Assembly (NCBI GenBank): GCA_951406725.2
Contig: OX597815.1
Span: 185,132,001 to 185,196,000, forward strand
DNA from: Octopus vulgaris
Taxonomy: Eukaryota
Reading direction: 5' to 3'
DNA length: 64,000 bases
Shown here piece by piece: positions 1,150 through 29,850 of this stretch. The notes under the pieces were generated by a model. It was not told where the DNA came from. It saw nothing but the letters and a program-made list of their open reading frames with translations, and did no database searches. The translations under genes and the position numbers were made by a program. How positions within the stretch are numbered: the first letter of the stretch is position 1; every line of letters starts with the position of its first letter.

Positions 1150-2140
1150 TCGATGATGATTCCAGAAAAGTAATGAAGTCCATCGCCAAACACTTCAGGT
1201 GTCAGGTGTGCACGATTACATTCGATACAAGCCGTATGCAGAGAAGGGAGGATAATTCATGTCTGCAATGAGATACGAAAACCGTTTAATCCATGCGTTT
1301 ACGTAAAAAAGGTTAAACACTCTCACGAACATGGCAAGCTCTCGTTTTTCACTGATGAGAAAACTTCGACTAAGACCAGTAGCCTAAGAGAAGAAATGGC
1401 AGATGGCTATGTTCAGATCGTTCTAATGACCTCAGAATGATGCATAATTTGTTTAAAGCAACCATAATTGTTTTAGGAGTGGTAAATAAGACATGCCATG
1501 TCATGATACCTCTCGTTTTTCCACAGGGTCTTAGAATTAATAGCGTTGGATGCATTGAGGTGCTCTGACAGTGGTAAGTCCTGGAAGGATGACGTATCTA
1601 GTAGATGGCCATACTTGCTTCAACAAGATTCCACATCTTTTCGCAAAATCCATGAAGCAGGTATGACGTCAGACAACGTTTATAACCGAATAACACCAAA
1701 CCCGTGGCCTCCAAAACTAACTAGATTTAAATTACACGGATTACTACATCTGGAGGGAGCGTTGGTGAAAGACAGTCTAACCGACATTATGACAATACCT
1801 ATTTCTTTATTATCCACAAGGGGCTAAACATAGAGGGGACAAACATGGACAGACATAGGTATTAAGTCGATTACATCGACTCCAGTACGTAACTGGTACT
1901 TAATTTATCGACCCCGAAAGGATGAAAGGCAAAGTCGACCTCGGCAGAATTTGAACTCACAACGTAACGGCAGACGAAATGCCGCTAAGCATTTCGCCCG
2001 GCGTGCTAATACCACAGTCTCACCAGGGCCGCCTTGGTTCGGGTGATGCTCGAAATGAATAGCGAGCACATAGTGCACGCATGCCAATGCATCCGGTCCC
2101 ACATTTACGCAGTCATCGAAGCTGAGGCTGATTCATAGAA
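1150..2140 (+). pseudogene. Decayed Tc1/mariner-superfamily (maT/DD37D-like) transposase, interrupted by SINE-A
   Basis: Frameshifted remnants FFTDEK (~1345), LQQDS (~1620), PNPWPP..DYYIW (1700-1755), then after the SINE ACQCIRSHI..AVIEAE (2075-2130). Confidence 0.7.
1800..2007 (-). mobile_element. SINE-A (tail type 1), 5'-truncated
   Basis: Near-identical to 4217-4450; flanked by AATACC at 1794-1799 and 2008-2013. Confidence 0.92.
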
Positions 2141-3428: not shown

Positions 3429-4216
3429 ATGCGAAATGGCAGAGAGCAAGTTTGAAATTGAAGAAAGATAAATATTCTGTTAATATATTTGAAAAATTTT
3501 CTGTATGATTAGTTCTTTTAATTTAAAATATACCCGCTTGATCCTAGGAGTAATTGAAATCTATGAAAAAACCTTTACTTTTGTAAATAAAATAAAGATT
3601 ATTTTAATAAAATCTGCCATACATTTCAATATATCTCGACAAGGTTTTCATCATATATTATTTTTCAATTTCAGTTTCAATTATAAACGCTTGTATTTAG
3701 GGAAATATTTTACTTTCATTGATCTGCACGAAAAGTAAGTAAATAAGAAAAGAAAAGAAAATCGCAGAACCGTTATTAAAGGAAAACATAATTTTGGTAT
3801 TTTTAACTGTAGCTCATTTTCACGAATGGCAACTTTCCCAAGGATTTTTTCCGCTTGGATTATTATAAATTTATTGACAAGAGATATATATGAAGCAAGA
3901 TACGGTTTCTACCTTGGCATGGCTCAATTTTTTAATAAATCTGTTGGAAAAATGCTTGCATATGCTAACGTATATTTAGTTATTTAATCCAGTGATGAAC
4001 GTCATCACTTGTGGAGCCTTAAATGATTGTATTTCCTGACTTCTTATAAAGCAGGTGCAATCTCATTAAATCCCATCGACTTATAAGCAGAGTCTTTCAT
4101 TCTTTTTGGAGATGATATAAATTCCAAACTATGGCATTGGATTGGTGGAATAATCGAAACATCAAATGAGACTCCTTGCGGAATCGCGTTCCGGCTATTT
4201 GCTGTCTTACAATACC

Positions 4217-4450
4217 TATTTCTTTACTACTCACAAGGGGCTAAACACAGAGAGGGCAATCAAGGACAGACAGACGAATTAAGTCGATTATATCGACCCC
4301 AGTGCGTAACTGGTACTTAATTTATCGACCCCGAAAAGATGAAAGGCAAAGTCGACCTCGGCGGAATTTGAACTCAGAACGTAACGGCAGATGAAATACG
4401 GCTAGGCATTTCGCCCAGCGTGCTAACGTTTCTGCCAGCTCGCCGCCTTA
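4217..4450 (-). mobile_element. SINE-A full-length (tRNA-like head, conserved central domain CTTTCATCCTTTCGGGGTCGATAAATTAAGTACCAG, tail type 1)
   Basis: Multicopy in window; B-box-like GAGTTCAAATTCC; 16-bp TSD GCTGTCTTACAATACC (4201-4216) / GCTTTCTGACAATACC (4451-4466). Confidence 0.93.
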
Positions 4451-4938
4451 GCTTTCTGACAATACCACCAAAACCACTGATGCCAAGATATATCAGATCT
4501 CAAGCCGAAGTATTCCCCACGGAAAACATCAGTAGCATGGATATTTGACTCATACATAAGTGACACTCAGTTTTCCACAAAATAGCTTGTCTAGGCTTGC
4601 AAAAGCAGCAGATAAATGATGAACAGTGTACAAGAGAGGTATCTAGAATTCCTTTTAATCCTGGTAGAGTGGATGCGTATCTTTCTTCTCCATTGCAAAG
4701 TCTGAATTATATAGAGCCAGCTTCCACTTCAGAGTCAGAAAATAATCCAGGACCTAGTAAGCCTCTACAAAGCTCACGTGAGACCCACCGTAGAATGATG
4801 ATCCTACATTTCGAACAGTTTTGCTGCTATGAACACAGTCATACTGAATCACATCCAAAACAAACAAAAAAAAGATCATGTGACTGCTTCCTGGATTTCG
4901 GATTTGCTACCACCTTTTTCCCCTTCCATATTTATCAA

Positions 4939-5170
4939 TTTTTTTACTACCCACAAGGGGCTAAACATAAAGGGGACAAACAAGGACAGACAAACGGATT
5001 AAGTCGATGACATCAACCCCAGTGCGTAACTGGTACTCAATTTATCGACCCCGAAAGGATGAAAGGCAAAGTTGACCTCGGCGGAATTTGAACTCAGAAC
5101 GTAACGGCAGACGAAATACGGTTACGCATTTCGCCCGGCGTGCTAACGTTTCTGCCAGCTCGCCGCCTTA
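4939..5170 (-). mobile_element. SINE-A full-length
   Basis: Matches 4217-4450; ~10-bp TSD ATTTATCAAT / ATTTATTAAT. Confidence 0.92.
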
Positions 5171-5424
5171 ATTTATTAATCGTTACCGCAATTACCCCTC
5201 CCTTATTTATCGTTACCATAATAAACAGTAACCTCTGATTCTTGGTTCTAACTATTTTGCGACACTTTAACTAAGGAATTTCACACTTACTCCGCTATCC
5301 CCGCTCCTCGTGATATTCATATTATGTCATGCGTGACCCGTTTGGGTGATACAGTTTCACGCAAGGCCCGAGACGGAAGATCACTCCAATGCCTGCCTTC
5401 CTGAAGAACATGTATGAAGGTGTG

Positions 5425-8948: not shown

Positions 8949-10221
8949 CGAGGGACGTTCAATAAGTAATGCCTCTGACCCACTTGCAGTTGTTTGATCT
9001 AGCTGAAATTTTTCATGTGCAATTATTTATATCTCTACAGCTCTGAGCTAATTGTGGTTTCTGATTTACAGGTGTTTGAACTGAGTCAAGTGTGAAATGG
9101 AGCCTGTTGAGTGTCGAGCAGTGATCCCGTTTTTGTGTTTGAAAGGACGCACAACACAGGAGACTTTTGATGAAATGAAAGTAACTTATGGTGATGATGC
9201 CCCATCATATGACCTTGTAAAACGCTGGCATCGTGAATTCAAACATGGTCAGAATTCTGTGGAAACAGCTCCCAGATCTGGTCACCCCCTTCTGCCATTG
9301 ATGAGGCATCTGTCCGTCAAGTTCAGGCTGCCATTTTGGAAGATCGATGCATAACTATTCGCCAAATAGCCCATGAGGTCAAGATTAGTACCGGGTCTGT
9401 GGAAACTATCATTCATGACCATTTGCATATGCAAAAGGTGTCTGCCAGATGGATTCCCAGGTTGCTCACACCTTTCCAGAAGCAAGAACGGGTCGAGTGC
9501 TCGAGGATGAATTTGGAGGTGTGCCAAGAAGATGAGTCAAAATTTTTCAAAAGACTGATTACACAGGATGAAACCTGGGTCCATCACTATGATTCAGAGA
9601 CCAAAGCCCAGTCAATGCAGTGGAAGCACCGTGACTCACCTCCTCCAAAGAAGGCAAGGGTGCAGCCCTCCGCTGGCAAGGTCATGCTCACAGTCTTCTG
9701 GGACCAGGACGGAGTAGTAATGACAGATTTCCTGGCAAAGGGTACCACAATTACAGGAGCCTATTATGCTTCACTTTTGAGGAAATTATGAGAAGCTATC
9801 AAAATCAAGAGGCGGGGCAAGATCAGCAAAGGCATCCTCCTCCTGCAGGACAACGCTCCGGTTCACAACTCGCGTGTCGCCAGATCAGAAGCACAGGCGT
9901 GCTGCTATGAACTCCTCCCCCATCCCCCCTACGCTCCTGACCTTGCACCCTCTGATTTTCACCTCTTCCCAGCCTTGAAGTTTCTTTTGAAAGGAAAGCA
10001 TTTCACAGATGATGCAGCCTTGATTTCTAAAGTCACGTCGTGGTTGGAGGACCAAGCTGGGGTCTTCTATAAAAACGGTCTCCAGCGCTGCATCAAACGA
10101 TGGCAGAAATGCGTAACTCTGAGTGGTTCCTATGTAGAAAAAGACTAATAACTGTGCCAAGTTTCGTTGCTCTACTACTATGGGAAGTGAGTCAGGGGCA
10201 TTACTTATTGAACGCCCCTCG
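8949..10221 (+). mobile_element. Full-length mariner element (~1.27 kb, irritans-like TIR)
   Basis: TIR CGAGGGACGTTCAATAAGTAATGCC / GGCATTACTTATTGAACGCCCCTCG; TA duplication at 8947-8948 and 10222-10223. Confidence 0.96.
9097..10148 (+). pseudogene. Mariner DD34D transposase pseudogene
   Basis: Motifs WIPRLL, ITQDETW, LLQDNAPVH, HPPYAPDLAPSDF. One frameshift near 9290, one in-frame TGA at 9789-9791; native stop TAA at 10146-10148. Confidence 0.95.
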
Positions 10222-11205
10222 TACGTTGGTTATAGTGAACAACTAGTACCATAGTATGTTTAAAATTATTAATATATTAATACAAAATTATTCAAACGAT
10301 TTAAAGCGAGATGGAATTGATAAAAACAAAGTGTTAAGAAACACTAACGTTTTAAGAGATTAACGAATTAATATTTATTTAGAATTTGTCATTGAAAGCT
10401 ACTTCTCGTGAATTTTTAAACTTTGTGCCGTAACCAGTATGTCTTCCTCACAGGAAGACCTCAACCTCAATACCAAGATTCCATCAATTACAACCTTATT
10501 TAACTACGTTTATGACTTATGTGCAGATCGCATCTTTCATTCGTGAAATATTATCTTCGCTACATAATATTCAGTTACCGTCGTTTGGTAATCGATTCCG
10601 TCAGTTGAAATTCTGCGCGTTAAGCTTAATGAACCTCTATACGAGGTTCATAATTGGTCGCACGATGTAGGAACTATCAATTTCACTTCTTGCATTAAAG
10701 TTTCTAGCCTCATTGCCATATGAGGAAACCTCCAACAAAGATAATCTTTGACTTGTTGTATCCCAATATTTCAAAAAACCTTTGCGTGTGTAGTTGATCA
10801 TGGACAGAATATCCAATCATTAAGATTTCAGTTCTTTACCCAACTGAAATATGAGGCTCAATGTATGTGAGCAACCGAGTATTCCACAGATATTTCTAGC
10901 TTTCATGTCTTTCTCAGGTAGCATCTGTGTGACATATTGGGGCAAGGTTTGACTTTTGAATTGCAAATACAGCCATCCTACGAGGTTTTGTACAGTTTCC
11001 CCCATCGGAAATTGAGTAAAAACAAGATCCAAGTGCTCTGGAATCTATACAAAATAACATCAGGCCAACGCGCTACAATGTGGGATCGAACCCGAAGACT
11101 AGTGATTGCGAAATAGACTTTTCAAGTATTTTGCCTTATATAAGTGTGCACGTGTTCTTGCATAACACACATACACACGTATTTTTGCAGTTTGCATCGA
11201 CAAAC

Positions 11206-12123
11206 CTATATTTTTTCTGGAAGCTGTTCTAATAGAGCCCGTTCTGTTTGAATTAACAGGTGGACCGTGTTGGAGGTCCAATTTACCTTTTCTGCAACGG
11301 TAGCCTGAAGTTTTGTTATCTCATCTACTCTTTCTGCCAGGACTGCCGCCATCAACCACATAGGGTCGACTTGAGGTGGGACATTTGGTATTTGTATTTG
11401 GGAAGTCCTCATACCAATGTATATTGGTATTAAAATCACATCTTCTGTTTCCAAGGATTTTATCGAGTTCGATTGTGCAGTTTATATGTTTTTTAGGTGT
11501 ACCTCGATGGTACCGAATTTTTTCCCTCTGGCTAGATATGTTATATCCTGCTATAAGGGCTTTAGACATTTTTCTACTTTCTCCTCGCTTAGTCGCTCGA
11601 TTTTTCTTTCTTTTCGGCAGTATGTTTTAAATATAATTGGGTTTTTTTCTTCTCTGTCAATAAAAGCTCTTCTGGGAGTTGAACCTTGACAACGCCGTCT
11701 TGAATTTTTATCATGTCCTTGCACATTAAAACGTCATTTTTCTTCGTCGACAGTTGGCGAGTTCAGTCTCCAGCTGCAGATGCAAAACTTCTTTTCTGTT
11801 TACCCGCCTCCGTTTGAAGTCTTTCCACTTCGACACTCTTCCTTGCAACGGTAGGAATTCGCTCTCAGACGAATCCGAAACATCTTCCAATACTACGTTT
11901 TCCACTTTTGTGGCCTCTAAATCTGTCGAATACAAACTTTTTGACATCTTGCCAGCAATTTAGTATTCCCCCCTACAGGGAAAAAACACAATAGTTTTCG
12001 AACAAAAACTATTATACAAATTTTAACAGCAAATATACATGCAACAACACGGAAACAGCCAACATAAACTACACTTACTATACAGACGCACTTCGGCAGC
12101 AATACCAACACTTCCAACTCACA
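11206..12123 (-). mobile_element. 5' portion of an L1/Tx1-like LINE (5'UTR plus decayed ORF1)
   Basis: ATG at 11947. Frameshifted peptide ARGKKFGTIEVHLKN..VDPMWLMAAVL..IQTERALLEQLPEKI is homologous to the ORF1 at 29300-29790. Confidence 0.72.
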
Positions 12124-12186
12124 CAGACGAAATATCGCTAAGCATTTCAAACGGAGTGCTAACGTTTCTGCCACCTCGCCGCCTTA
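12124..12186 (-). mobile_element. Isolated SINE-A head abutting the LINE 5' end
   Basis: Minus strand AAGGCGGCGAGGTGGCAGAAACGTTAGCAC..GCTTAGCGATATTTCGTCTG, then an abrupt switch to LINE sequence. Confidence 0.88.
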
Positions 12187-13455
12187 TTACGTATAAGATG
12201 AATGGAATAAGAATGCAAAACAAATAAACTAAGCCGGAACTGTTGGACAGATGTAAGTAGATTATATTAAATTTGTGCTTATAGACATTTATTTACAACA
12301 TAACTGTTATATCACGTATTATTGACATAGCGAAGGAGCTTGCCTTGCTCTCTATAATGTGGATGCATATACAGATGTACGGTTATAAACACGTACGTTA
12401 CTACCTTAGGTGAAGGCCTAACATTATAGAAGAGGGCGTTATTCGATTAAATCGAACTCGGAACTTGATTGGTACTATAATTTATCGATTTGGGAATTAT
12501 GAAAAACAATGTTCGCCTCGGTGGGATTTGAACTCCGAAGTTGGAATATTGGAAGACATTTTCTCTGACAGTCAAACGAATCTACTTATCAACAAAATTT
12601 GATTTCTTATTTTCTACATAACATCGTTATAGATAACGCTATGTGAAAGTACAAGAGAAAAATATAGTGTACTTATTACTTATGGAGCGCAGCAGTAAAA
12701 TCACTTTATTAGTACTCACCGTTTATATACTTATGCGTATATTATATTTTTATATTTTTCAGTTTTTATTTTATCTAGTTATTTTCGAAATTTATTTCTG
12801 GTAAACAATAGCAGACATTTTTCAATGACACTTATACTGCGAGCAAAGTCCGAATCAAATAGCTTTAGCACTCGTAGTAACAGAAAAAAATTAAACTTCT
12901 TACTAAATTAGAGCACTTGGTACCTTCTTCAAATCCAATTCATACATTTCTTGCAGACACACTGATACACGGAACACAAACACGCACACACTTATGCAAA
13001 AATCGTATACGAAAAATTATACATTATCATATACAAAGATGGAGCGCCAGGTGTCGTCCTGAAAACCAATTCAAATATTTGTTGCAGACAGACACGTTCA
13101 TAGAACATACACAATCACGCTCACACAAGTACAGAGAAATATACACAAGTAAATTCATACATATACGTCCGTGAATATCCATGTGCGTATATTGTGTAGC
13201 GAGATAAGATTTTCTTTTAAATATATCTTATTGAAAAACGACTATGTTCTAATTCAGTGTTTTTATTAATATTTCTTTGTATCTGAGTATCAGAGTATAT
13301 TTCGTTTAGAACAATAACGTTCCCAAATTCATTGTTATCAACATTTCCAGATTATATCAGCCACATCTTCTTGATAGAGGTGTTCTTTTTACACATACAC
13401 ACACACGCGCGCATATACATATACGTATATATACGTTTGTGTGCGCATATATCTC

Positions 13456-13504
<49 letters not shown>

Positions 13505-13509
<5 letters not shown>

Positions 13510-14370
13510 TAGCAAAAGTTTTCCGGGCTAGTTATGTTTAATAAAAAATAACTTATTTACCCAACTTTTAACATCATCTCCTTCTAAGCACTCACTTTGT
13601 ACAGCAGTACACCGATCCCAGCGCTTCTGCCACTTTTGGAATCCAGACTGCTAGTTTTTTTTTTCCGTAAGTGAGACGAGGACCTTCTGCGATTCGATCT
13701 GGTTCTCGACAACGGTGACCTTTGAACTACTTTTTCATCTTGGAAAGAGTTGGAAGTCTTCAGATGCTAAATCTAGCGAATAAGGCGGGTGCAGAAACGA
13801 TACAATGTTGCTTTTGGAGAGAAACTCGCGGATGAGGAGAGCTCAGACGCAGGTTGCATTGTCGTCGTGAAGAATTCAATTCTTCATGCTCCGTAGATCC
13901 GGTCGCTTTCGCCAGATGTCCTCGCTTCGCCAGATGTCTTCCCTTCGGCAGATGTCCTTCCTTCGCCAGATGTCCTTCCTTCTCCAGATGTCTTTCCTTC
14001 GCCAGATGTCCTCGCTTCAAAATTTCATGCATAAGCTGATGAACTTTCTCCACATGTCCGAGGATGATGCTCGTGGCAGGTTTTCCAGATCGGTCATCGT
14101 CTTTCAGGGATGTACTTCCGCTTTTAAAACGTCCGGGCCACTCAAAACATTACGTACGACCCATTGCCTCAACAGCTTACACCTGCTGAAGCAAGCTCAA
14201 TGTCTCTGTAGCAGACTTTCCAAGTTTAACACAAAACTTCCTTTTTGCTTCTCCCAGCTTCCTGTCAAAGAGAAAATCGCAGACTACAGCATACACGTGA
14301 TCACGAAAATACAAATTCCACAACTTGCGAAGTAAACACAACGATGTCTCTTGGCACACTGTGACATTTT
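13505..14370 (-). mobile_element. Internally deleted, decayed mariner
   Basis: Minus-strand remnants KFCVKLGKSATET, CFEW..RFKSG..DDDRSGKP, RKRPDL, ILHDDNA, HPPYSLDLA, FQKWQKRWDRC. Confidence 0.88.
13908..14015. repeat. 18-bp minisatellite, 6 units (TTCGCCAGATGTCCTTCC)
   Basis: Direct reading; explains the repetitive ORFs 13760..14053 and 13886..14335. Confidence 0.93.
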
Positions 14371-14377
14371 AAAAGCG

Positions 14378-14423
<46 letters not shown>

Positions 14424-14428
<5 letters not shown>

Positions 14429-14605
14429 TAAATAAGGGTATCTAAGAGATACCACTATGCTTGAAATAGCAGTCAAAACTTGACTCTAAAACCACATCAA
14501 CTACTCAATACAGTACAAAATGAAAGGACAAATAGACAAATAGAACAAGGTTTTGACTGCTATTTCAAGCATGATGATATCTTTTAGATATCCTTATTTA
14601 TAATT
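14424..14605. repeat. Small foldback element beside (TA)n, ~55-bp arms
   Basis: TATAAATAAGGGTATCTAAGAGATACC..ATGCTTGAAATAGCAGTCAAAAC versus its reverse complement at 14550-14605. Confidence 0.8.
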
Positions 14606-14849
14606 TCAATAATTATTATAATATATGTTTTTTTCTTTCCATGCTGCCACGTGTTTTGATCGCTATTCAAAATAACGATTTTATCCGTAATTATATAGGG
14701 ATACACACACCCACATACACAAATTAAACACATCAAATATATTTTATACACTAAACATCAGATACAAAGTATGCTGCATGTATGTAAACATGCAAAACGA
14801 GAGGAAGGAAAAAGGGGTGACTTTCAGACGATGAATTTTTAACTATAAA

Positions 14850-15305
14850 TCTGTAGATATTTATTTTTATAATTCCAACTTAAACAGAGTACAAACGATA
14901 AGGAAAGGGGAGGAAGAAAAGTTTTATAAATTCAACAGCTGTTTCTGGAGGCGGTTTCCACTTCTACTCCTACCTTCTTTAGTACAGTCATTATGAACCT
15001 CCTACTCTTCTTGAACTATCTTTTCTCCTCTCACTATTCCCTGTCGTGATACCACCAGCATCCTTCTAATGCAGTTAGATCTCCACATTTACTTATTCCA
15101 TCTTTGAACTTTTCTGCATTAAGATCAGAAATGTAAGATCTCTACCCTGATGTTGTGATCTCTACACAGGATGTTGTGATGTACTAAGTTTAACAACATC
15201 ATTATGGATCACGGAGCCCCAAGAAACAGTTGTAACTTCTTTCTTGCACCCCTTTAATTTTCGCTGTCATTTGCATTTTGTGTAAGTTGGACCTCTAAAT
15301 ATAAA
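14850..15305. mobile_element. Degenerate PLE-type foldback remnant
   Basis: Diverged inverted arms (CCAACTTAAACAGAGTACAAACGATA vs TGTCATTTGCATTTTGTGTAAGTTGG). Both carry GAAACAG(C/T)TGT near their inner ends, like the 3' half of the hammerhead at 30983. Confidence 0.45.
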
Positions 15306-15529
15306 TATATATATATATATATAATAATAATAATATTAGGGAGTAAATCCAAACTTACAGGGAAAAATTAATTAATTTTATTTCTATGTTTTGGTTTATG
15401 TTTTTCACTGTTTGATTTGCCTAGTTGTGGTTTTATCTAATATATATATATAATTTTTCTTGAGAACATTTCTTAGTGGTAAGACCATAGCAGATCGATT
15501 TCTAGCATAAGGGTGTCCACATAGCGGTT

Positions 15530-15578
<49 letters not shown>

Positions 15579-15868
15579 TTATTTATACATAAGAATTCAT
15601 CTGAAGATTTCCAGTTTTTGCTTTCTCTCATTTTGCATGTATACATATAAACATACTTTGTATTTGATGCTTAATATATTGAATATATTTCATGTGTCTA
15701 ATTTGTTTATCCGTATAATTGCCTCTATATCCGCTCAAATTGATCCCTCTTATAACCTTTCTTTACCCCGTGGAATGATCCCCTGTAAAGACATCGGAAT
15801 TTAAGTTTGAATCGTTTGACCATAGTGTCTTCTATACGGAGAGTTTCTGGATCTCATCCGTGAACTAC

Positions 15869-15906
<38 letters not shown>

Positions 15907-15913
15907 GTCAGAC

Positions 15914-15949
<36 letters not shown>

Positions 15950-16794
15950 GCCAGACTGAGAGAGAGAGTGTTCCTATAATTATTTTATCTTCTTACACAG
16001 TCGAGTAGTGTATGGTATGTTGTCATTGACTCTGAATTACGGAAATATAGAGATGATCACTAAGAAGAAAGAAATTTGAACCGTTGAAGAACATGAACAT
16101 TAAAGGCTGTCTCTCTTACAGAAACCTTCATTAAATGTTAGAATGACAAAGCGATAGAAAGCTATACAATAGTGGAGGTCTTCTTGGGAACGCGGCGTAG
16201 CATATTTCGAAGTGTTTCCAAAGATCAAGGTAAAATAACCGAATCAATATCATACACAGGGAATATTTACATGCAAATTAAGTGAAAACTTTTTGTCGCT
16301 TTTGAAATGACTTGACACACGAAAACACATGGATATAACGTGAGATCCATTGTAATATCGCAATACATGTTACTGAGCACTGGAAACTGCTTACTATACA
16401 TTTCTCTAATTCACCTGGCTGTAGGATATCTGTATTATATTATCTTGGAATGACTGGTATTAATTTCAGGTTGAGCATAACAGTTAGTTTGCACCTGGCT
16501 ATTCTACTTTTAAATTATGCAACCTCATGCATCCATCGTATGTGGAAGGATGATTACAGCATATATTATTTATTTGTCTGAATGTGTGTGCTTCTGTATA
16601 AGTAAGTTCAATAAATATAGGAGCTCTCTCTGACAGATATATGTGTGTGTGTATACACACTCACACATATACATTATAGATGTATATAAAATCACATACA
16701 TGCACGCATGTATACATCCGCGCATACATACATACATACAGATCGTTAGCCACTACACACATTTTTTTCTCTCCTTGTTTTTTTTCCTGTGTCC

Positions 16795-16830
16795 CTTTCT
16801 GTAGAAGAGCGTAGGCTCGAAACGTAAAAG
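16795..16830 (+). ncRNA. Minimal hammerhead-like motif (variant core) in a ~180-bp PLE-type repeat (16741-16920)
   Basis: CTTT-CTGTAGA-A-GAGC gtag GCTC-GAAA-CG-TA-AAAG: stems I and II pair, stem III is the palindrome ACGT, and the core is CUGUAGA instead of CUGANGA. Confidence 0.6.
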
Positions 16831-17547
16831 ACTTTTTCTATTCCTGAGCGTTATACTAATACCTTTTTGTACACCACCTATCTTCGTCTTTTGTTGGGTT
16901 TTTTTCGTAAAATCTCCCTACATACAAACATACATATGTATACATACATGTACGTGTGAATATGAATTCGTATAGAAAAAAGAACAGCCGAGAAGCTAAA
17001 ACCACAGAAAATTTTTACTGCATTTTGTATTAAGTATATAGTCGAAATGAGTTTAAAGTTGCACTCATATTGTCCTTTGGAATGTATGCGTATAAATAAT
17101 CTTTTATCTTTTTTACCAGTTATACAGCAGGAATTATATAACCTGTTACAACATTATTTACAAACTCATATGTTTTGATTTATTCAAAAGCGAGTAGAAT
17201 TGATATAATAATATTCTGCTAAGTTGTATCCTGTTAAATCGAAAAATTAAGAGAGACATTAATGCAATTGGTTGATTGCTTTTCTCTATTAGTTCTGGCT
17301 CACTACGCTCTGATATCAAAGTCTTATCAAACCAATTTTGCCTTTTAATCGTTTGGAGGATTGCATGTCAAATACCATTTCTTGGCTGTGAATAAACGGA
17401 CCTGTTAAAGAGAAGAGCATGTTGCTTTGTAGTAAATATTCCGGTTCTTCAAGTTCTTATAGTAACACCTGCGCTGATATCGGGTCAAGCTTTATTGGCC
17501 TAAATCATCGGATCTTTCTTTCGATAAATATCAGAGAGGTGGAGAAG

Positions 17548-17700
17548 GGAGAACAACACCGTTGTCGAGAGCCAGATCGGATCGCAGAAGGTCCTCGACT
17601 CACTTACGGAAGACTTGCAGACTGGATTCCAGAAGTGGTAGAAACGCTAGGGCCGAGGTATTGCTGTGCAAAGTGAATATTTAGAAGATGATCATAAAAG
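17548..17700 (+). mobile_element. Mariner 3' fragment, same family as 13505-14370
   Basis: CACCGTTGTCGAGAGCCAGATCGGATCGCAGAAGGTCCTCG is the near reverse complement of 13677-13718. Confidence 0.82.
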
Positions 17701-17716
17701 GGAGATGACATATGTA

Positions 17717-17947
17717 TTTCTATATTACCCACAAGGGGCTAAACATAGAGGGGACACACAAGGACAGACAAACGGATTAAGTCCATTACATCGACCCCAG
17801 TGCGTAACTGGTACTTAATTTATCGACCCCGAAAGGATGAAAGGCAAAGTCGACCTCGGCAGGATTTGAACTCAGAACGTAACGGCAGACGAAATACGGC
17901 TACGCATTTCACCCGGCATGCTAACGTTTCTGCCAGCTCGCCGCCTT
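17717..17947 (-). mobile_element. SINE-A full-length
   Basis: Matches other copies; ~20-bp TSD AAAGGGAGATGACATATGTA / AAAGGGAGATAATATATGTA. Confidence 0.93.
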
Positions 17948-20900
17948 AAAGGGAGATAATATATGTAATCATTCTTCCTAAACACGAAAATCTTGTGTTC
18001 AGGCACGGACATACATGTACAGATGCTTGTTCAATCTTCACCGACGGATGTCAGATATATTCTGTGAAGTAATTGTTTGATGTGCCCCTACAACAGAATA
18101 TTCTTCCGTTTTGTTCTCTACAGCACATCGGGTCTTGTACTATTTTTCTTGCAAGTTCTTTGTAAGCCAGGAATTTTGTCTCACACTTGTCTCACTCAGC
18201 ATGTCACCTAAATTATGCATTGCTTAGTCCATTTGAAATTTCGTAAATGCAAATTATCATATTTCTAAAAAGAGAGAGTAATGAGCGTTTACGATCTGAT
18301 TAATTAATGGAATGCAGGCGACGGTAAATTGAAATTTGCTTGATGCGTCGAGTTAGAAATTTGTTACGTGTCATCATATGTTGTCGGCAATTTGTTCAAG
18401 GAAATTATGAATGTATTTTAGCAATTTTTCTCCTAATCATTAGCTGAAGCTAATGATTGGGAGGAAAAAATATACTCGTTAAATTTATGAAGGTGCGGCT
18501 GCTTTTCATGAATGATATTTTATTTCTTTCGCTTTTTTTTTTTGTCGTCGGTTCAGTTTGTTTTTCAAATCATGTCAATTTCAATGGATTTCGTATTTTT
18601 AAGCATCCACGAATTCGGTGAAACATTTCTTTGAAAATCCACATAGAAAGTGATTAAATGTTATAAATAAAATCTGAAAGGTCAAAGCGGTGATTGAACA
18701 AAAACGATTTTCATTAAAAAATATTAAATCAAATATAGAAAAAATTTTTTTTTTCCTTTTTTTGGCTGTTAAAGATGAAATTTGACTAAATGTCAAGAAT
18801 TTTTAACTGAAACGCTAATGGATGTTATTGATTCCAATGCGTTTAAAAATGAAAGTATTGAAGTAGCGTATTCTTTTGAACCAAAAAATTTACTGGTTAA
18901 CATTTTAAACTAAAAAAAAATTGTACTAGATTTTCTTAAGTCGTATTTGTAACAAAGTTAAGACGATATCGTTCACACGATCAAGTATATTGTACTTATA
19001 CAATTATTATTGTGAATATTATTAATTGCAACAGAAACGGTATTACTGCCAAAGGGTAATATTTATCCTTAATTAAAAGTAGATGTTTTGTTAGAACACA
19101 AAATACTACGTTATTTACCACGAGAGAATTTGACATGGATTTGTGGTGTATATAAGATCTCGTGTTTACATCGCTAGCGGGAGATAATCCACTGTTATCA
19201 TCACTGGGGCTTCCCGAACATGTGATTTCGGTCTTTTTTTTTTTTTGGCCTTGTCAGTGACAGATTTCCAGGCTAGAGATAGCAGCTATTCCTCCGTCAG
19301 TGATATACATAGAGTGTCAGTGTCCATTCAGGTACCGGCGTTGCAAATAACTAGCGGGCTTATTAAAAACTAATCAATAGCGACAAAAGCAGTATTGATA
19401 GTAAAAGGTAATATTTATCCGTACTTAGCAGTAGATAATAGATATTAGAACAAGTTCACAGGAGAGGTCTTCCCATGGTCAATATACAGTATTCTTTGTT
19501 CTACTGCATTTTTTGACTGAAGTGTCCTTCCCGTTTTTAAACATTAGGGTTATATTGTAATTTCATCGGGATTTGGCTCCAACTACCATCAACCGGAGCA
19601 TCTACGTTGAAGCAGCCTGCTTTTGTTGTCTACATTTAGATATATATTGTCAAGAATTTACTGCACTTAATAACGAATGTTTAAAAGCAATTCAGTTTAT
19701 AAAAGTGTGAAAAATTTTTAGACGTGAAATCGAATGCTTGAGGCTATCGATCTGATGTATAGACAGACAAATTTCCTTTCTCTGTTGCGTTTTAAGCAAT
19801 GAATTCTTTTTAGCTTTAGCAAAGATCCATTTATTGACACTTGATTTTAACTTACGCTCACTGTTAATTCTCGGCACATGCTTCATAAATATCCTTGTGC
19901 ATTACGAAATCTTATTCTTGCAGCCTGTAAATATACGTTCTTGTACTTGAGTTATCAATATATGTGTTCTTTCAACTCATTGATGATTTAGGCCAATATT
20001 TGTGGTTATTGAGCAAAACGTAAATTGTAGAACATTACAGATTTTCATTCGGTAATTTTTCTTCGTACAATTCTTTTCGATTTTATATCTACGACATTGA
20101 AAGCGTCATTGTTGTAGGGTACAATACAGGTTTTGAGTGTCCGCCCTGTATTCAGTATATTTCTTTACACTCGTAAGTACAATAAGGCTATAGGCAGAGG
20201 CTAGCAATTTAAAGTCAGGTTTATGGCAATTTTTATTTCTTTACCTTTATATCTCTTGATTTGCATCCATGAACAGTCTGAACATTATTATATTCATCAA
20301 TATAATAATGATCGGACGTAGCTTATGTCTTTATTTTGAGTGAGTATGGGATTTTTACATTTGTCATAATTTGATGGGGAAATAATTTTCTTAAATAGTG
20401 TTTGGGTTGATGGAGCATATGGACGTTATGGTATGTTCCGGTCGTGCTTGGAAATGACAAAGATTTCTGTTCGCATCCGCAGTACTTCTTTCCTTTACAT
20501 ATATTTCTCATTGTCCATCGGGTATGTGAATGTGATGGATGCAATCTTGTGATAATGCAAAAGTAGATGTGGTTTGAGTTAAAAGGATCTCAATCCAGCA
20601 ATAAATTAAAACCAAATTTCCCCCTAAACTACGTTCCATCTTGACTTTCTAAAGAAGGAAAACCATATTGAAGAATCTAATTCTAAAGTCAGCGTGACAG
20701 AAAAATACGACGAAGAAATCAATATTGTCGAATAACTGGAAAATTCTATAAGATGGGAACGTGTTTATTGGTGATTTACAAAATTGATGACGCTGTTATT
20801 TAACCATTTTCAACAGACTGATTGACATAGATCCATCTTTATATTCTTTAAACAATATTGCGTTAATTTTCTACACAAATTTTACCGAAATGACAGGTAT

Positions 20901-21235
20901 TTGGATCTTTTATGGCCATTTCGTCTTGTTTGTCATGAGAAAATGTGTAAAACCATTAACTTCATTCCTGTCAGTTATTTGTACACATATATCCGATAAA
21001 ACTATCCTAAACTAGGAACCTTCTTGGCTTAAAAATCTCCACTTTGAAGATATATTTATTACACCATAGCAATATTCTTACATCTTTTCATTAGAAATAT
21101 CAACACCCGTTTATTAACAAGAACCGGATGTAATCTGATCGACTTTGTTTCGATAGAATATTATTCGCTATCAGCATGCACGAGTTATTTATACAATGCT
21201 TAAACAGTGATGCAATATCGTAGAAGAAAATATTG

Positions 21236-21365
21236 GTTTCAAATTTTGGCACAATGCCAGCAATTTCGGGGGCGAGGCAAAATCAGTTACATCGACACCC
21301 TGCGCCAAGGGCTCAGCTGGTACTTATTTTATCGTCCCAGTAAGGATGAAAGGCAACGTGACATT
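21236..21365 (-). mobile_element. Degenerate SINE-A 3' half (tail type 2)
   Basis: TTTCAAATTTTGGCACAA..CTGGTACTTATTTTATCG..AGGATGAAAGGCAA. Confidence 0.7.
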
Positions 21366-23625
21366 TAGTAGAGATGACCCGGAAGTTATTCCTCTTTGAT
21401 TACTATTGTAAACAGCAGTAGCATTCTTTAACGGAATATACGTCGTTGATTGGTTGAAATTACTCAAATACGACAATTTTAACACGAAATAACTTCTAAA
21501 ATACGAAATTTTGTCAAAAAGTTCAGAGTAAACCGTGTTCTACGGTTACAAAAAATATTAAAAAATGTGATTGAGCTGGAATAGATCCGGATATAAACTA
21601 TATGCTTAATATATAGCTATTGTTTTAAGGGAATTTAATTCCTCGAACATACCAGGTATTGAAACAGTATTTCTTTCAATGCAACCATCCCTTCACTAGG
21701 TTAACATACCCTCTAATTAAATGCATGTATGTATGTATGTATGTATGTATGTATGTATATCTATATACATTTATATACAAAGTAAGAGAGAGAGAAAGAA
21801 ATCGTGAGTGTGAGGAGAAAACAGCGAGAGAATATGACTCTCATATTATTCTAAATTATCGAATAGTTGCTATTAACATATACAGATATTACAATACAAC
21901 ATTGATACTCCATCTTTATGTATGTTTTTAGCATCAATAATGTGCATATAATATATTTTACCATTAATAGTTATCTAAACTCACACAGTTACGTTTACAT
22001 CCATTGTGAGATGAGAATATTAAAATATTTCCGAGTATTAAGCTTTATATCAAATAATTAATTCCAACTTTCTTTTGGAGTTTCTCTGTAGCAAAACAGG
22101 CATATGCCATATGCCTATGCCATATCGATTGATACTTCATTTGTTCTTTGATGTCTGTTCAAGTGCTAGAAGCTTTTAACAATAACGCATATATATATAT
22201 ACATATATATTGTAAACAATAATTGTTTTAAACGCATGCTAAAATGCTTGGGGTTTAAAAGATGCAAAAGAGAAACTGTAAGTTTTTTAAGAGAAGAGGT
22301 AACCTGGTTTCAGCTTTGTTCTTACTAGGAAACAAGATCAGGTAATGGATTTGGTTTGAAGATAATTTACCTCTAATGTATTGTAGTCGCTAATTTGTTG
22401 GATAATTATTTCTCACATAAAACTAATCCATCATGCATGAAGGTGGGTGAGAAAAGAAAATTGCTTTTTTGCTAATGCCGTTTTTTTTTCTGTCAGAGCG
22501 TCAGAACAATGGTTTGTAACGGAAGAGAAAGCGAAAGTGAAAGTTGAAAGCTTGCATATTATTCACAGATTATGCAAGCAATAGTTATATAAGTTGTTCT
22601 GTAAGAAATATACGACAATACAAAGTATAGTCTTATTAATGACGATGGTAGTGAACTGAAATACTTTAAAAGTCTAATGAAAATTAGTTTCGTGAATTTC
22701 TTTACCTTTCTTTTCAGGAAATATTACGCTTATTGAGATAAGAATTATACTCGAGGGAAAATTCTTTTAACATAGGGCGACACCAAATAGAAACTTTTTA
22801 GCACAATCGGTTGAAGTTAACTTCTATTTCACTATAGACGCCATCTTGCAAAATTCTAATAGAAAACATTTGTTGCCCTAGAGGCAAGATTATATCTTTT
22901 AACTTGGCAGTAATTTGGAAACAAAAATAGAACAAACAAAAGAAGTAGCCATTCTTTCTCCTTGTCTGGAGCAGACATGAGCCTTTTGTTTTCTTGTTAT
23001 TGTGAATGCATATAATAAAGTGAATATAAGCGAAATTATTCTTAAGCCATCTCAAATATTCTATAGGAGAAATCGAAAATCAATACGAATCATATCTAAA
23101 TGAAAAGTGGATAATTTATCTCATTGCATTGTGTTCTATGATAATGTTACTATTTCGTGGTATTAAAGACACAAAAGATATTTCAAAATATATCTTTGTT
23201 ATCGTTCTTTAGAATACACTGAAATGATGTAAATGCTAACCTTTTAAAAAAAGAGAGCCACTCCCCAACGAATTGAGCTTTTCAAGTTAAACCGCAGACT
23301 AACGTAAAAGTTTCTGTTGTTAATCTTTCTCAAAATATAGATATGTATTTTGTCGTTATTGGAGAAGGATTGAACAGATCTTGATAATCATCTAAAATTT
23401 GAAATTTCTAACAAAAGCTAAACTGCTTTACTCTTTTTATTCTTTTTGATGTGCATTATCAGGCTTATTTAATACGAGTTCACTTAGAATTCTATTCCAA
23501 AGCCATGAGAAAAGAAGGTGGAATCAGTCTTGATATAGGTTTAAGGGGAAAAAGATACAGGGTGGTCAGAAAGTTTTGTCACCCCCTATCTAAAAGTAAT
23601 AAGAACGATAGAGGAACAATATAAT

Positions 23626-24021
23626 CCTTTCTACGATAGGCACAAGGCCTGAAATTGGGGGGGGGGGGCAGTTGATTAGATCGACCCATTACGCAACTGG
23701 TACTTAACTTATCGTCCCCCGAAAGGATGAAAGGCAAAGTCGACCTCGGTGGAATTTGAACTCAGAACGTAGCGTCGGGCGAAATACCTATTTCTTTACT
23801 ACCCACAAGGGGCTAAACACAGAGATGACAAACAAGGAGAATCAAACGGATTAAGTCGATTATATCGGCTCCAGTGCGTAACTGGTACTTATTTAATCGA
23901 CCCCGAAAGGATGAAAGGCAAAGTGGACATCGGTGAAATTTGAACTCAGAACGTAGCGGCAGACGAAATACCGCTAAGCATTTCGCCCGGCGTGCTAAAG
24001 TTTCTGCCAGCTCGCCGCCTT
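23626..24021 (-). mobile_element. SINE-A heterodimer (head + body/tail-1 + body/tail-2)
   Basis: Internal junction at 23788/23789; outer 16-bp TSD AGAGGAACAATATAAT (23610-23625) / AGAGGAACACTATAAT (24022-24037). Confidence 0.92.
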
Positions 24022-24288
24022 AGAGGAACACTATAATATCAAGCACATTTAACTGGTTTTAGTATTTTCACTTTCATTGACGCTGATGCTATCACACATC
24101 GTGAAGGTCTGTATGAACACCAACAGCTTCGTCAAGTATCACAAAGGACATGGCTCCGCATCATTCTATGCCACGAAAATGATGGTGTTTATACAGGCCT
24201 TGTTGATATGTGAGAGTGTCAGCGTCAATGAAAGTGAATGTTCTAAAACCAGTTAAATGTGTTTGATATTATTATATTGTTCTTCTGT

Positions 24289-24670
24289 GGAACAGCAATG
24301 GCCTAGTGGTTAGAGCAGCGGACTCGCGGTCATAGGATCTCAGTTTCGATTCCTAGAACGGGTGTTGTAAGTGTTTATTGAGCGAAAACACCTAAAAGCC
24401 ACACGAGGCTCCGGCAGGGGGTAGTTGCGAGCCCTGCTGTACTCTTTCACCACAACTTTCTCTCATTCTTTCTTCTTGTTTCTGCTGTAGTTGTATTTCA
24501 AAGGGACCAGCCTTGTCACACTCTGTATCACGCTGAATCCCCCCGAGAACCACGTTAAGGGTACACGTGTTAGTGGAGTGCTCAGCCATTTGCACGTTAA
24601 TTTCACGAGCAGGCTGTTCCGTTGATCGGATCAACTGGAACCCACTTCGTCGTAGCCGACGGAGTGCCAC
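24289..24670 (+). mobile_element. SINE-C (~380 bp, tRNA-derived head)
   Basis: A box TGGCCTAGTGG, B-box-like GTTTCGATTCC; ends CGTAGCCGACGGAGTGCCAC; TSD ATTGTTCTTCTGT / ATTGTTGCTCTGT; other copies at 37269, 54989, 61283. Confidence 0.92.
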
Positions 24671-25407
24671 GGCGATTGTTGCTCTGTTATTCATATTACT
24701 TTTCGGTAAGGGGTGACAAGACTTTCGGACCACCCGAAAGATTACCAAAATAATAGTAATCCAACAATCTGTCCGCTGTGATTATCAAATGTGAATATCT
24801 ATATTTACGTCTTCCCAAAATTAATAAACGGGTTTCAATCACCAGGCAAGAGTTTTATGATGACAAAGGCGACGGGAATTAACGGAACATGATGACATAA
24901 CATGCCGTTATATGCGTTTTTAATCTGTCGTGCTATTGTTAGTCAGCTGGAATAATAAATAATTGTCCATCCACTTAATCATGAATGGCAGAATATATCA
25001 CGACCACTTCTTAAGTGTAATTCTATAGTCTCCATGGAAATTTCGACATCAAGAGCAATTTTATGAGTTTCACACACACACACATGAAATCGATGATATG
25101 ATCCGTATATCTAAATTGAAGAATAGTATATGCTATAAAATACTAATATTTTACAGCTATAGAGATTGGTGCAGCTTCTTATATTACAAAATCAAGCACA
25201 ATTACATTGCTGTATGCCTGTGATTAGAAACGAAAGAAAGAGAAGAGGCGAGAAGAATAAAAAAAAACTGTGAATGTGAGAGACAAACGGAACAAATGAG
25301 TGAGAAAAGCAGCAAAACGGATGATGGCAGCAAAACATATAATTCCGCGTTGAAGGGAATCAAAGACAAGTAGCTGCTTTCATTCCCGAGAAACATAATT
25401 CCATTAA

Positions 25408-25995
25408 AAGGCGGCGAGCTGGCAGAAACGTTTGCACGCCGGGCGAAATGCTTAGCGGTATTTCGTCTGCGATTACGTTCCGCCGAGGTCGACTTTTCCT
25501 TTCATCCTTTCGGGGTCGATAAATTAAGTACCAGTTACGCACTGGGGTCGATGTAATCAACTTAATCCGTTTGCCTGTCCTTGTTTGTCCTCTCTGGGCT
25601 TAGCCCCTTGTGAGTAGTAAAGAAATAGGTATTTCGTCTGCCGTTACGTTCTGAGTTCAAATCCCTCCGAGGTCGACTATTCCTTTCATCCTTTCAGGGT
25701 CGATAAATTAAGTACCAGTTACGCACTGGGGTCGATGTAATCAACTTAATCCGTTTGCCTGTCCTTGTTTGTCCTCTCTGGGCTTAGCCCCTTGTGAGTA
25801 GTAAAGAAATAGGTATTTCGTCTGCCGTTACGTTCTGAGTTCAAATCCCTCCGAGGTCGACTATTCCTTTCATCCTTTCAGGGTCGATAAATCAAGTACC
25901 AGTTACGCACTGGGGTCGATGTAATCAACTTAATCCGTTTGCCTGTCCTTGTTTGTCCTCTCTGGGCTTAGCCCCTTGTGAGTAGTAAAGAAATA
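25408..25995 (+). mobile_element. SINE-A trimer: one head plus three head-less bodies (184-bp unit)
   Basis: Junction AAAGAAATA|GGTATTTCGTCTG at 25628 and 25812; TSD AAACATAATTCCATTA / AAACATAGATCCATTA. Confidence 0.94.
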
Positions 25996-26331
25996 CAAAC
26001 ATAGATCCATTACTTAGAGCAGATGTCACATTGTACCACATTATTAAATCGCTACAAGAGACGGCTCATTATATAAAACATATTCTTAGTTTATTGGCGA
26101 CATTCACTAGTTCTATGGGTCAGTCCCATAGATCAGATTCCATTTATCACTGTTCTCAATCCATAATCTCAATCTGCAGCAGTTTTTGTTGATGTCGACC
26201 CACAACACTTATCTCAGCCTCTCATGTTGTTATATACTTATCCGTTGCGTGGTAGCTGAATTATCATTTCGGGGTTCACTATGCATGAGTCAAAGATTCA
26301 ATTATTTTTTTATTTTAATAATAGAGAAAAT

Positions 26332-26607: not shown

Positions 26608-27175
26608 CGAGGGTGAGTCAAAAATTAATGCCATTTTATTTAGGACAGGTATAATTACCAACACAGGAACATTTATCATACATCAAAATGAAGCTGGTCC
26701 TCTGTGAATCACATCCCTACTTCTCAACATATTCACCGTTTCTCTCAATAGCAATATTCCACCTTCCAATGAGAGCATGTATCCCTGCCCCGTAAAATTC
26801 AGTTGACTGTTCTTTGAGCTACTTCTTCACTACAGTTTTCACTTCCTCGTCACTGGAATAATGATTGCCTCTAAAACCTTCTTTCATGAGGCCGAAAAGA
26901 TGGTAGTCTGAAGGCGCTAAATTATTCCAGTGATGAGGAAGTGAAAACTGTAGTGAAGAAGTGGCTCAAGGTACAGTCAACAGAATTTTACGGGGCAGGA
27001 ATACATACCCTCATTCGAAGGTAGAACATTGCTATTGGGAGAAGCCGTGACTATGTTGAGAAGTAGGGATGTGCTCCGCAGAGGACCAGCTTCATTTTGA
27101 TGTATGATACATGTTCCTGTGTTGGTAATTATACCTGTCCTAAACAAAGTGGCATTACTTTTTGTCTCACCCTCG
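26608..27175. mobile_element. Palindromic mariner derivative made of two inverted 3' ends
   Basis: Arms 26608-26860 and 26922-27175 both encode YSSDEEVKTVVKK..QSTEFYGAGIH; the spacer encodes LAPSDYHLFGLMKE on the minus strand; TIR CGAGGGTGAG with TA on both sides. Confidence 0.92.
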
Positions 27176-28243: not shown

Positions 28244-28285
28244 TACTTGCATTATGACCCGGCGTTGCCGGGTCATAGTGCTAGT
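28244..28285. mobile_element. Helitron/Helentron-type terminal hairpin with CTAG
   Basis: ACTTGCATTATGACCCGGC gtt GCCGGGTCATAGTGCTAGT: GC-rich hairpin ending in CTAGT. No other part of such an element is visible. Confidence 0.45.
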
Positions 28286-28520: not shown

Positions 28521-29850
28521 TTTCTTTATTACCCATAAAGAGCTACACAGAGAGGACAATACAAACATTGGGGACATAAAACATCACAATTACATAAATA
28601 TGGAAAATGAAATATGAAATTGATAAATGAAAAATGAAAGTGATGCTAGCGGCCCCATCCGCTAGCATCACTTACCTGTCCTTCATACTTTATCCTGAAT
28701 GTAATACACATTGTGCTCTATTTTCATCTCAAATCTCTTTTCCATTTCCGTTATTATCTCGTTATCTATTTCAAATATAAACAATTTATATTTTTTCTTT
28801 TTACATTTTTCCACGAATTCTTCTATACGTTCTTCCAGATTACAGCGTACCTATCACTGTCCTTGTCACACCAGTGATAGTCATTCAATATTTCTTTTAC
28901 GTCTTTTTTCGCCCATGTTTTTTTACGGTATCTTGTCTGTTTGCCTGTTTTTTTTGTTTTGTTGTTGGTGGCGAGTGGGTGGGTTCACTGTCTACAGGGG
29001 AAGTGTGGGTCTCAGAGGGTGCAGGTGGTGTTGGAATGGATTGGGGTTCAGCACTATTTTTTCCCCTTCTTCTCTTTCTCCTTCTTCTGCCTTCTTCCTA
29101 TTCTTTTTGTACCTCATCCTCTTCCGTTGTGTCTTTCTCCGTTGATTTCTGCTCTTTCTCGTTGGCCACTATCTCTCTTTGAGGTTCCACAAGCTGGAGA
29201 GCAGGCCAAATGGAGAGCAAGCCAAAAAGAGACCAAGCCAAAAGGAGAGCAGGCCAGCTGGTGAGCAGACCATCTGGAGAGCAGGCCAAGTGGACAACCT
29301 GAGAGCAAGGGAAGTTAGCTCTTATGTGACCTTTCAGGCCACACTTGTAGCGTGGGGCTCTGCCCTCCACCCACACTCTCACAATAACGCATCCCATTCT
29401 GATATTCTCAGGCAATTGTTCCAATATTTCAGCCTCTGTTTGCACGTTTATTTCCAAAACTGCACCCTTCAAGCCTTCATATTTCACTGTAGCATGGAGG
29501 ATGTCAACTTCTTCCTCACATCCACTGATTACGGCTGCCACTATCCACTCTCCGTCAACGTTCTCGCTGCCATTTTCCTCGCCACACTTTCATTCTTGAA
29601 TTGGACCACCACGGCACCGAATTTTATGCCTCTTGCATATTATGTCTTCTTCCGTTCTTTTTAATGCTTCTACTATTGTCTCCATACTGACGACTTCTAT
29701 TTTCTTTTTTTCATTGGCATAAACCCGGTACGTGATGGTCCTTCGTTCATGCCACTCTTTTCGTTTAGGTGGCGGTGACAACTCCACTTCACTGCCGACC
29801 TTTTTAATAAATGCCTGGTCGAGAGAAGCATCAAATAAGTCAGTCTTAGT
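28521..29850 (-). mobile_element. ORF1-only (HAL1-like) L1/Tx1-type non-autonomous retroelement
   Basis: Decayed ORF1 (RRTITYRVY..ARGIKFGAVVVQFKN..VDGEWIVAAVI..LEQLPENI..VEGRAPRYKCGLKGHIRAN zinc knuckle) and an acidic/basic linker, then 3'UTR with a hairpin and tail TTGTCCTCTCTGTGTAGCTCTTTATGGGTAATAAAGAAA. No ORF2. Confidence 0.75.

Follow-up and report, generated by a model that had tools for sequence, protein, structure and literature searches.

A Tx1-like LINE and its likely partner SINE are joined at one fixed site in the SINE head in the genome of Octopus vulgaris

Tx1-like LINEs and a type-1 SINE of Octopus vulgaris have a 3' tail in common and are joined at one fixed site in the head of the SINE, where, probably, the LINE endonuclease cuts and the SINE borrows that enzyme. 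The parasitic SINE likely supplies the landing site both for itself and for the LINE that carries it. A preliminary description of our window, a stretch of 64,000 nucleotides from contig OX597815.1, had proposed such a system from GGTATT motifs following SINE tails, and the genome-wide count bears it out: of 81,580 exact type-1 tails, 38,764 are directly followed by GGTATT (exact-match count), against a background of 2.9e-4 per strand-base in 264 kb of unselected DNA. In 25,622 cases the tail runs into GGTATTTCG, the sequence of the head from position 51, although long arrays inflate these junction counts. In unselected DNA (264 kb, a single region of one contig), 20 of 43 tails were joined at head position 51 and three at position 18, and about a third to a half of the SINE family lies in fixed-junction multimers. 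Outside SINEs the target motif is loose, with GGTATT beginning 16 of 165 junctions; together with the 3,526 type-1 tails followed by GGTATT and a base other than T, this extends the enrichment beyond multimers, as had been predicted.

Within the window, the five tails said to be followed by GGTATT (1794, 4211, 23788, 25628 and 25812) all are, those at 4939 (GATAAAT), 17717 and 25995 indeed lack it, and GGTATTTCGTCTG does lie within the SINE head, starting at 25457. The further claim that the motif recurs in flanking target site duplications (TSDs) holds for the type-1 monomer at 4201..4466 (−), whose site is empty in a related species (organism E) and whose 16-bp TSD beginning GGTATT (4201-4216/4451-4466) carries two mismatches, but at the 5'-truncated type-1 monomer at 1794..2013 (−) the duplication (1794/2008) amounts to the 6-bp motif alone. 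Of the remaining type-1 monomers, that at 4938..5171 (−) is flanked by GATAAAT, a loose version of the motif, and that at 17716..17950 (−), our reference for SINE coordinates, carries a G46/C51 head variant and lacks GGTATT. A heterodimer combines a full type-1 5' unit (23789..24022, −) with a headless type-2 3' unit (23626..23788, −), the whole flanked by a 17-bp duplication (23609-23625/24021-24037); its empty site was not seen in the raw-read check of orthologous loci. The trimer at 25408..25995 (+) consists of a full unit followed by two headless ones of 184 bp, with both joins at head position 51, and lies between duplication copies at 25391..25407 (+) and 25996-26012 that are alike at 14 of 17 positions. 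Both of its junctions are followed by GGTATT as described, but they are not independent events: because its units are 98.0 and 99.4% identical to each other and the orthologous site in organism E is SINE-free (a contig from raw-read run X12 joins 25390 to 25997), the trimer is probably a local expansion rather than three separate landings. Its head target region (25441..25469, +) forms an inverted repeat whose arms match imperfectly around a loop of TAGC, and junctions fall at the boundary of loop and 3' arm. The SINE copies are short and of high copy number, with variable TSDs, 5' truncation and empty orthologous sites; the head has motifs resembling A and B boxes, and neither ARAGORN nor Rfam gave a tRNA match to it. 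We take the Octopus tRNA-derived SINEs OR1 and OR2 to be probably the same or related families, with a common head and core and different tails.

The LINE occupies the same position, at 50|51 of the SINE head. In the window, a ~1 kb 5' fragment of subfamily A (5' UTR and broken ORF1; 11128..12123, −), its 3' part missing, is 72% identical to full-length copy L138, with an ORF1 49% identical to that of subfamily B; no ORF2 was present anywhere in the 64 kb. The lone SINE head described beside it (12124..12186, −; positions 3-65) ends in the target 13-mer as the upstream half of a split SINE, and does join this ORF1-bearing 5' end directly. Elsewhere, all 26 intact LINE 5' ends in a sample of 30 loci follow the head 13-mer (the four loci without a 5' end were left out), four 5'-truncated LINEs are still preceded by a head, and the 30 sampled 3' ends are followed by a headless SINE (26), by the 13-mer and another LINE (one) or by other DNA (three). 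All 40 loci of the young subfamily B, 12 of which overlap the 30-locus sample and two of which are one duplicated locus, adjoin the same head position. Full-length LINEs lie within an older SINE, of which 13-16 bp (head positions 51-63/66) are duplicated, with the outer TSD of the SINE intact around head, LINE and SINE, including in type-2 hosts (L144, L157 and L179); at the 5'-truncated L163, a private variant occurs in both duplicated copies. Across 30 full-length loci, head positions 3-42 diverge by 6-11% and the 3' SINE by 4-7.5%, more than the LINE ends (0.5-0.7%), and the host SINE is therefore older than the LINE inserted in it. Head positions 43-63 beside subfamily B diverge by only ~1%, like the LINE itself, a value from which strict target selection and RNA-derived sequence are not separable.

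The autonomous partner that the preliminary description had postulated was recovered as a ~5.3 kb element with a CCHC ORF1, an open 1,134-aa APE-endonuclease/RT ORF2 and the 3' tail shared with the SINE. ORF1 (519 aa) contains the knuckle CFLCGQLGHIRRNC and its atlas neighbours are zf-CCHC (0.90-0.91); a Pfam scan of ORF1 returned no CCHC match. Domains and catalytic residues of ORF2 were identified from sequence, with Pfam Exo_endo_phos, RVT_1 and zf-RVT in the L169 copy (an APE endonuclease at the N-terminus, RT, and a zinc finger at the C-terminus). The frame is open in L169, L175 and L179, with the endonuclease domain taking up roughly residues 1-245. Its top PDB match is human L1 ORF2p (E 8e-64), with R2 far lower, and its sole named protein match is a 'Transposon TX1' protein (30% identity), at 322 bits vs 219 bits for human L1, scores that come from different databases. 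By its ORF2 domain order and separate ORF1 the partner classifies as an L1/Tx1-type non-LTR retrotransposon, and we infer membership of the Tx1 clade, one trait of which, sequence-specific insertion with TSDs, is displayed by the LINE loci. LINE and SINE tails are 82-87% alike over 41-55 nt and have a predicted terminal hairpin in common (z −2.8 and −2.1 in two of three; not significant in subfamily B, z 0.62). This tail with its predicted stem-loop suggests that LINE and type-1 SINE form a stringent pair; tail and common site together suggest that the SINE depends in trans on the LINE protein for its mobilisation, with an endonuclease presumably specific for the SINE head.

Under the mechanism we propose, ORF2p would nick the bottom strand at 50|51, at the loop of the inverted repeat, prime reverse transcription at that nick, and make its top-strand cut 13-16 nt beyond it. 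By binding the type-1 tail stem-loop it would write type-1, not type-2, SINE RNA into the site. The new SINE cDNA, itself carrying head sequence, could then anneal to the upstream head of the host, leaving a full and a headless unit and no second head; we infer this additional step, which the earlier proposal did not contain, because second heads are kept in <1% of SINE-in-SINE junctions (73 vs 25,622). Those 73 are genome-wide pattern matches to a nested head, full SINE and headless SINE; visual inspection of 29 distinct loci showed this arrangement in 22. Through recombination or slippage at the duplicated sites, dimers would grow into near-identical 184-bp arrays and, away from SINEs, the enzyme would accept a loose (G/A/T)(G/A)TAT site at which monomers are placed.

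The same site could also be used with specificity residing mainly in RNA-DNA pairing, whereby LINE and SINE transcripts reading through into GGTATTT would pair with nicked heads, the endonuclease would be loose (xRTAT), and LINE RNA might begin within the head and replace positions 43-66. We regard this as unlikely, though several observations fit it: the base following the LINE tail is subfamily-specific (G in A, C in B), the hairpin loops of the two endonucleases differ at a single residue, and the 5' copy does not track the host SINE at bases 64-65. Similarly, head positions 43-63 diverge like the LINE, positions 33-42 beside subfamily B diverge by 5.7% vs 2.6% in G46 monomers, and a consensus base occurs solely in the 3' TSD copy at L189, L209 and L312. 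However, such TSD asymmetry was balanced (1 vs 1) in ten unselected pairs, and the choice of hosts argues against pairing: the head preceding each of the four truncated copies of subfamily B has C51, a base carried by about a third of type-1 and 1/32 type-2 monomers, and type-2 hosts make up 3-4 of 40 subfamily-B loci vs seven of 14 for subfamily A. G46/C51 heads are found beside subfamily B in 29 of 30 cases vs 30 of 96 type-1 monomers; no body marker was linked to this variant at p<0.003, so subfamily-B hosts are not typeable from their 3' part. A difficulty for the mechanism we propose is that 16 of 17 multimers with a C51 first head nevertheless carry a junction G; duplicating the host head does not by itself yield this, and the new cDNA would have to overwrite that head in some of the events. 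C-junction matches (n=382; C51 head in 12 of 21 readable arrays) were rejected as proof of a target-derived junction base, since at so low a number many could be G junctions altered by point mutation. A closed coevolving loop is conceivable, which we put forward tentatively and consider rather less probable than its absence: the LINE shelters in its own parasite and splits the SINE's A/B promoter boxes, a SINE that inserts at this base restores both a complete promoter and a fresh target, and the two LINE subfamilies have specialised, A on the T46-G51 and B on the compensatory G46-C51 variant of the hairpin, so that a change of target can be traced within a single genome.

We consider it very unlikely that multimers are products of template jumping or of RNA that is itself multimeric or circular, with reverse transcription breaking off at the hairpin close to position 51 and resuming on the 3' end of another RNA, so that each multimer is inserted whole and self-targeting by the SINE plays only a small part. 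A single TSD does surround whole multimers, the window trimer and dimer included, second heads are rare, inner units of long arrays are 98-100% identical, the trimer site is empty in organism E, and the type-1 SINE is without a T4 terminator and therefore open to read-through. Yet jumping leaves unexplained both the 5.3-kb LINEs inside older SINEs at the same base and the nested loci. Dimer units are unrelated copies (median identity 91.5% in 24 dimers vs 91.4% in 4,560 random pairs) and type-2 units occur solely in last place; none of 196 scanned type-2 tails was directly followed by a headless unit, three regex flags being separate heads further downstream. Type-1/type-2 diagnostic bases in head positions 1-51 are too few to detect chimeric heads. 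Arrays of whole monomers in unique DNA with the form TSD-(SINE-TSD)n (L193-L196) show that DNA-level expansion operates in SINE arrays. The earlier reading of the SINE as a landing pad is supported, all three of the refuting observations it named having turned out in its favour, with the refinement that long multimers, the trimer included, grow mostly by local duplication. That GGTATT is merely the end of the tail consensus and multimers ordinary tandem duplications, to which the G after 77% of tails (62,960/81,580) might point, can be dismissed, since the motif is carried by both TSD flanks (in the 5' copy in 9/11 and 2/2 cases), decays position by position after tails in the unselected sample and is apparently present in the empty orthologous site of organism E, identifying it as target DNA, as the preliminary description had assumed.

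Site-specific LINEs are known in rRNA or snRNA genes, microsatellites and other transposons. A LINE whose site is part of a SINE likely mobilised by that LINE generates new targets for itself, which would explain the fixed-junction stacking of a third to a half of a very large SINE family. Repeat pipelines would split such multimers into many false families. With young copies whose ORF2 is open, and with target variants that differ between the two subfamilies, the question of APE-type specificity (endonuclease or RNA pairing) becomes directly testable.

In the literature searched, which covered papers rather than Repbase entries, we found no LINE that targets its own SINE. For the Octopus SINEs OR1 and OR2 (cited in PMC4758252), we found no partner LINE or target preference described in the text available. 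Tx1L of Xenopus in Tx1D, Keno in U2 and Kibi/Koshi in microsatellites (as summarised in PMC4494074) are likewise APE-type elements with sequence-specific insertion into multicopy sequence, but their targets are DNA transposons, host RNA genes and microsatellites, none of them, in that summary, a LINE-dependent SINE. Squamate SINE-derived satellites (PMC10702118) and bivalve tandem SINEs (PMC11481361) also consist of SINE parts in arrays, for which unequal recombination is held responsible; the portions available describe no site-specific partner LINE, whereas in Octopus the LINE uses the fixed junction as well. Zepp of Coccomyxa/Chlorella is, as here, a LINE-type element nested in its own family, but in the account available (PMC3446292) it is autonomous and nested in copies of itself, each chromosome having one such cluster, with no SINE partner and no fixed base given. 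Also close are the crocodilian Tx1-Mar LINEs and SINEU, which have a common preferred site in Mariner-N4_AMi (PMC4494074): there too, as far as that text goes, a Tx1-type LINE and a SINE prefer one site in a repeat, and tandem SINE insertions have a TSD between them. Their target is a third element, whereas in Octopus it lies within the SINE family itself, the pair is linked also by a common 3' tail, and the multimers are without repeated heads.

The association between this SINE and its GGTATT junctions is real and genome-wide, and is best explained by a sequence-specific Tx1-like LINE that has its site within the head of a SINE with the same tail as the LINE. All the junctions named in the preliminary description are present in the window, G000:C2:185,132,001-185,196,000, where several copies of the 233-bp SINE lie; the copies share head and core and carry either of two kinds of tail (type-1 and type-2; numbering follows the copy at 17948-17716), and at least three distinct type-2 tails were seen on this head and core. 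We take the family to resemble octopus SINEs, the sole support being the mollusc-rich atlas neighbours of the LINE ORF1. The 2.8-Gb genome contains 81,580 exact copies of a 24-nt type-1 tail, followed by GGTATT in 38,764 cases (background 2.9e-4 per strand-base), by GGTATTTCG in 25,622 and by a non-G base in 18,620; GGTATT plus a non-T base follows 3,526 times and GGTAT plus non-T 5,962 times. Of the 43 tails in an unselected 264-kb sample, 20 were joined to head position 51, three to position 18 and 20 to other DNA, and in fetched loci, in part chosen for the motif, 209 of 231 internal junctions lay at positions 51-54. A secondary fixed junction at position 18 (13/231), where the tail is followed by AGAA(A/T)CGTTAGC, is exemplified by loci L071, L078, L169 and L351, and some type-2 tails also seem joined there (L164, L250, L279).

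Of 165 non-SINE junctions whose flank had played no part in their choice, 16 read GGTATT and 30 GGTAT, and the overall profile was (G/A/T)(G/A)TAT(T). Anchored duplications were found at 64 of 157 terminal tails, part of these spurious and in microsatellites; under stricter anchoring, the 5' duplication copy also started with GGTAT in 9/11 flank-selected and 2/2 unselected cases, which assigns GGTATT to the target rather than to the SINE tail. In the related organism E, two runs each gave a contig that joins 4196 to 4447, and none of the differences from the window listed falls in the motif-containing span 4447-4496.

The full-length partner LINE (~5.3 kb) encodes a 519-aa ORF1 and a 1,134-aa ORF2, open in L169, L175 and L179, with APE endonuclease, RT and zf-RVT domains; the nearest named protein to ORF2 is Tx1 ORF2 and its best PDB match human L1. 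LINE and type-1 SINE tails are alike in sequence and identical in the predicted fold of their terminal hairpin. Searching with the window LINE 5' end gave 40 matches; the 5' end was present in 26 of 30 loci, always directly after a GTATTTCGTCTG-like 13-mer, bearing out the earlier observation of a LINE 5' end that adjoins a SINE head. What lies upstream of the 13-mer is a SINE head at nine of these loci, a SINE tail at 12 and, at five that may be related to one another, a LINE tail. The LINE tail has 113 matches, and 30 sampled 3' ends were followed by a headless SINE (starting at position 51) in 26, by the 13-mer and another LINE in one and by other DNA in three. Position 51 or a near variant lay directly 3' of the young subfamily B in 40/40 fetched loci; subfamily A, that of the window, has the same 3' ending in L132, L135, L138, L139 and L140. 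Head-to-tail LINE pairs joined through the 13-mer (L062, L063, L064, L067, L068, L096), mostly with one shared variant base, may have a single origin.

The usual order is SINE head 1-66, LINE, SINE 51-end, and a SINE head also lies upstream of 5'-truncated LINE copies (n = 4). Across 30 full-length subfamily-B loci, divergence was 6-11% in head 3-42 and 4-7.5% in the 3' SINE, with 0.5-0.7% at the LINE ends and ~1% in head 43-63. The SINE's own outer duplication persists around head, LINE and SINE, type-2-tailed hosts included, and the host SINE is older than the LINE inserted into it.

Heads before subfamily B carried G46/C51 in 29/30 loci, a variant found in 30/96 type-1 and 0/32 type-2 monomers; heads before subfamily A carried G51. 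Head ~35-63 forms an inverted repeat in which positions 46 and 51 face each other at the base of the loop, so the T46/G51 and G46/C51 variants are compensatory. These preferences could come from either endonuclease choice or RNA overwriting.

SINEs nest in SINEs as the LINE does: genome-wide, a new full SINE begins after the head 13-mer at 73 places, and in 22 of 29 distinct loci a full SINE stands between a head (or a tail plus 13-16 bp) and a headless SINE. This pattern is rare against the 25,622 tail-head junctions, since the SINE cDNA, carrying the duplicated sequence, likely anneals to the host head, so that a second head is seldom kept. Simple dimers (n = 24), whose units are as unlike (91.5% identity) as random copies (91.4%), therefore look like two independent copies, and long arrays, whose internal units are up to 98-100% identical, look like later local expansion. 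The window trimer (units 98.0 and 99.4% identical; empty site in X12, a raw-read run from organism E) belongs to the latter class. Counting against the simple reading, multimers with a C51 first head still had G at the junction in 16/17. Type-2 units were always the final unit of the arrays read. Other arrangements comprise a TSD-(SINE-TSD)n array in unique DNA, where whole monomers repeat every 247 bp (L193-L196, G000:C1:12,697,586-12,698,357) and head-only tandem arrays of 64-65-bp units (L344/L345 and G000:C10:17,996,024-17,996,504).

A second, internally deleted Tx1-like LINE at 28521-29790 (minus strand; ORF1 26% identical to subfamily B) has a similar tail, after which comes CGATGTGTTC, where a different repeat begins; the terminal hairpin of that repeat (28250-28285) we take to be Helitron-like. 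This related LINE family may have switched target. The window also holds copies of another tRNA-like SINE family (24290-24680 and 61264-61716), 3' remnants of further non-LTR retrotransposons that by eye resemble R2/R4 and RTE elements (5810-6870 and 32471-33022), and, presumably, Mariner-like transposon remnants (8950-10220 and 26608-27175, from the ORF at 9237-9791).

The literature searched, which excludes Repbase, Dfam and subscription papers that may describe the family, yielded no account of a LINE that inserts into its own SINE; it included passages of PMC4758252, PMC11481361, PMC10702118, PMC8967140, PMC3446292, PMC1950540 and PMC3747384. Recently active L1-Tx1 families have been listed for an octopus, the main text giving no target analysis (PMC13282606). 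From the portion available, the closest published system is Tx1-Mar/SINEU (PMC4494074).
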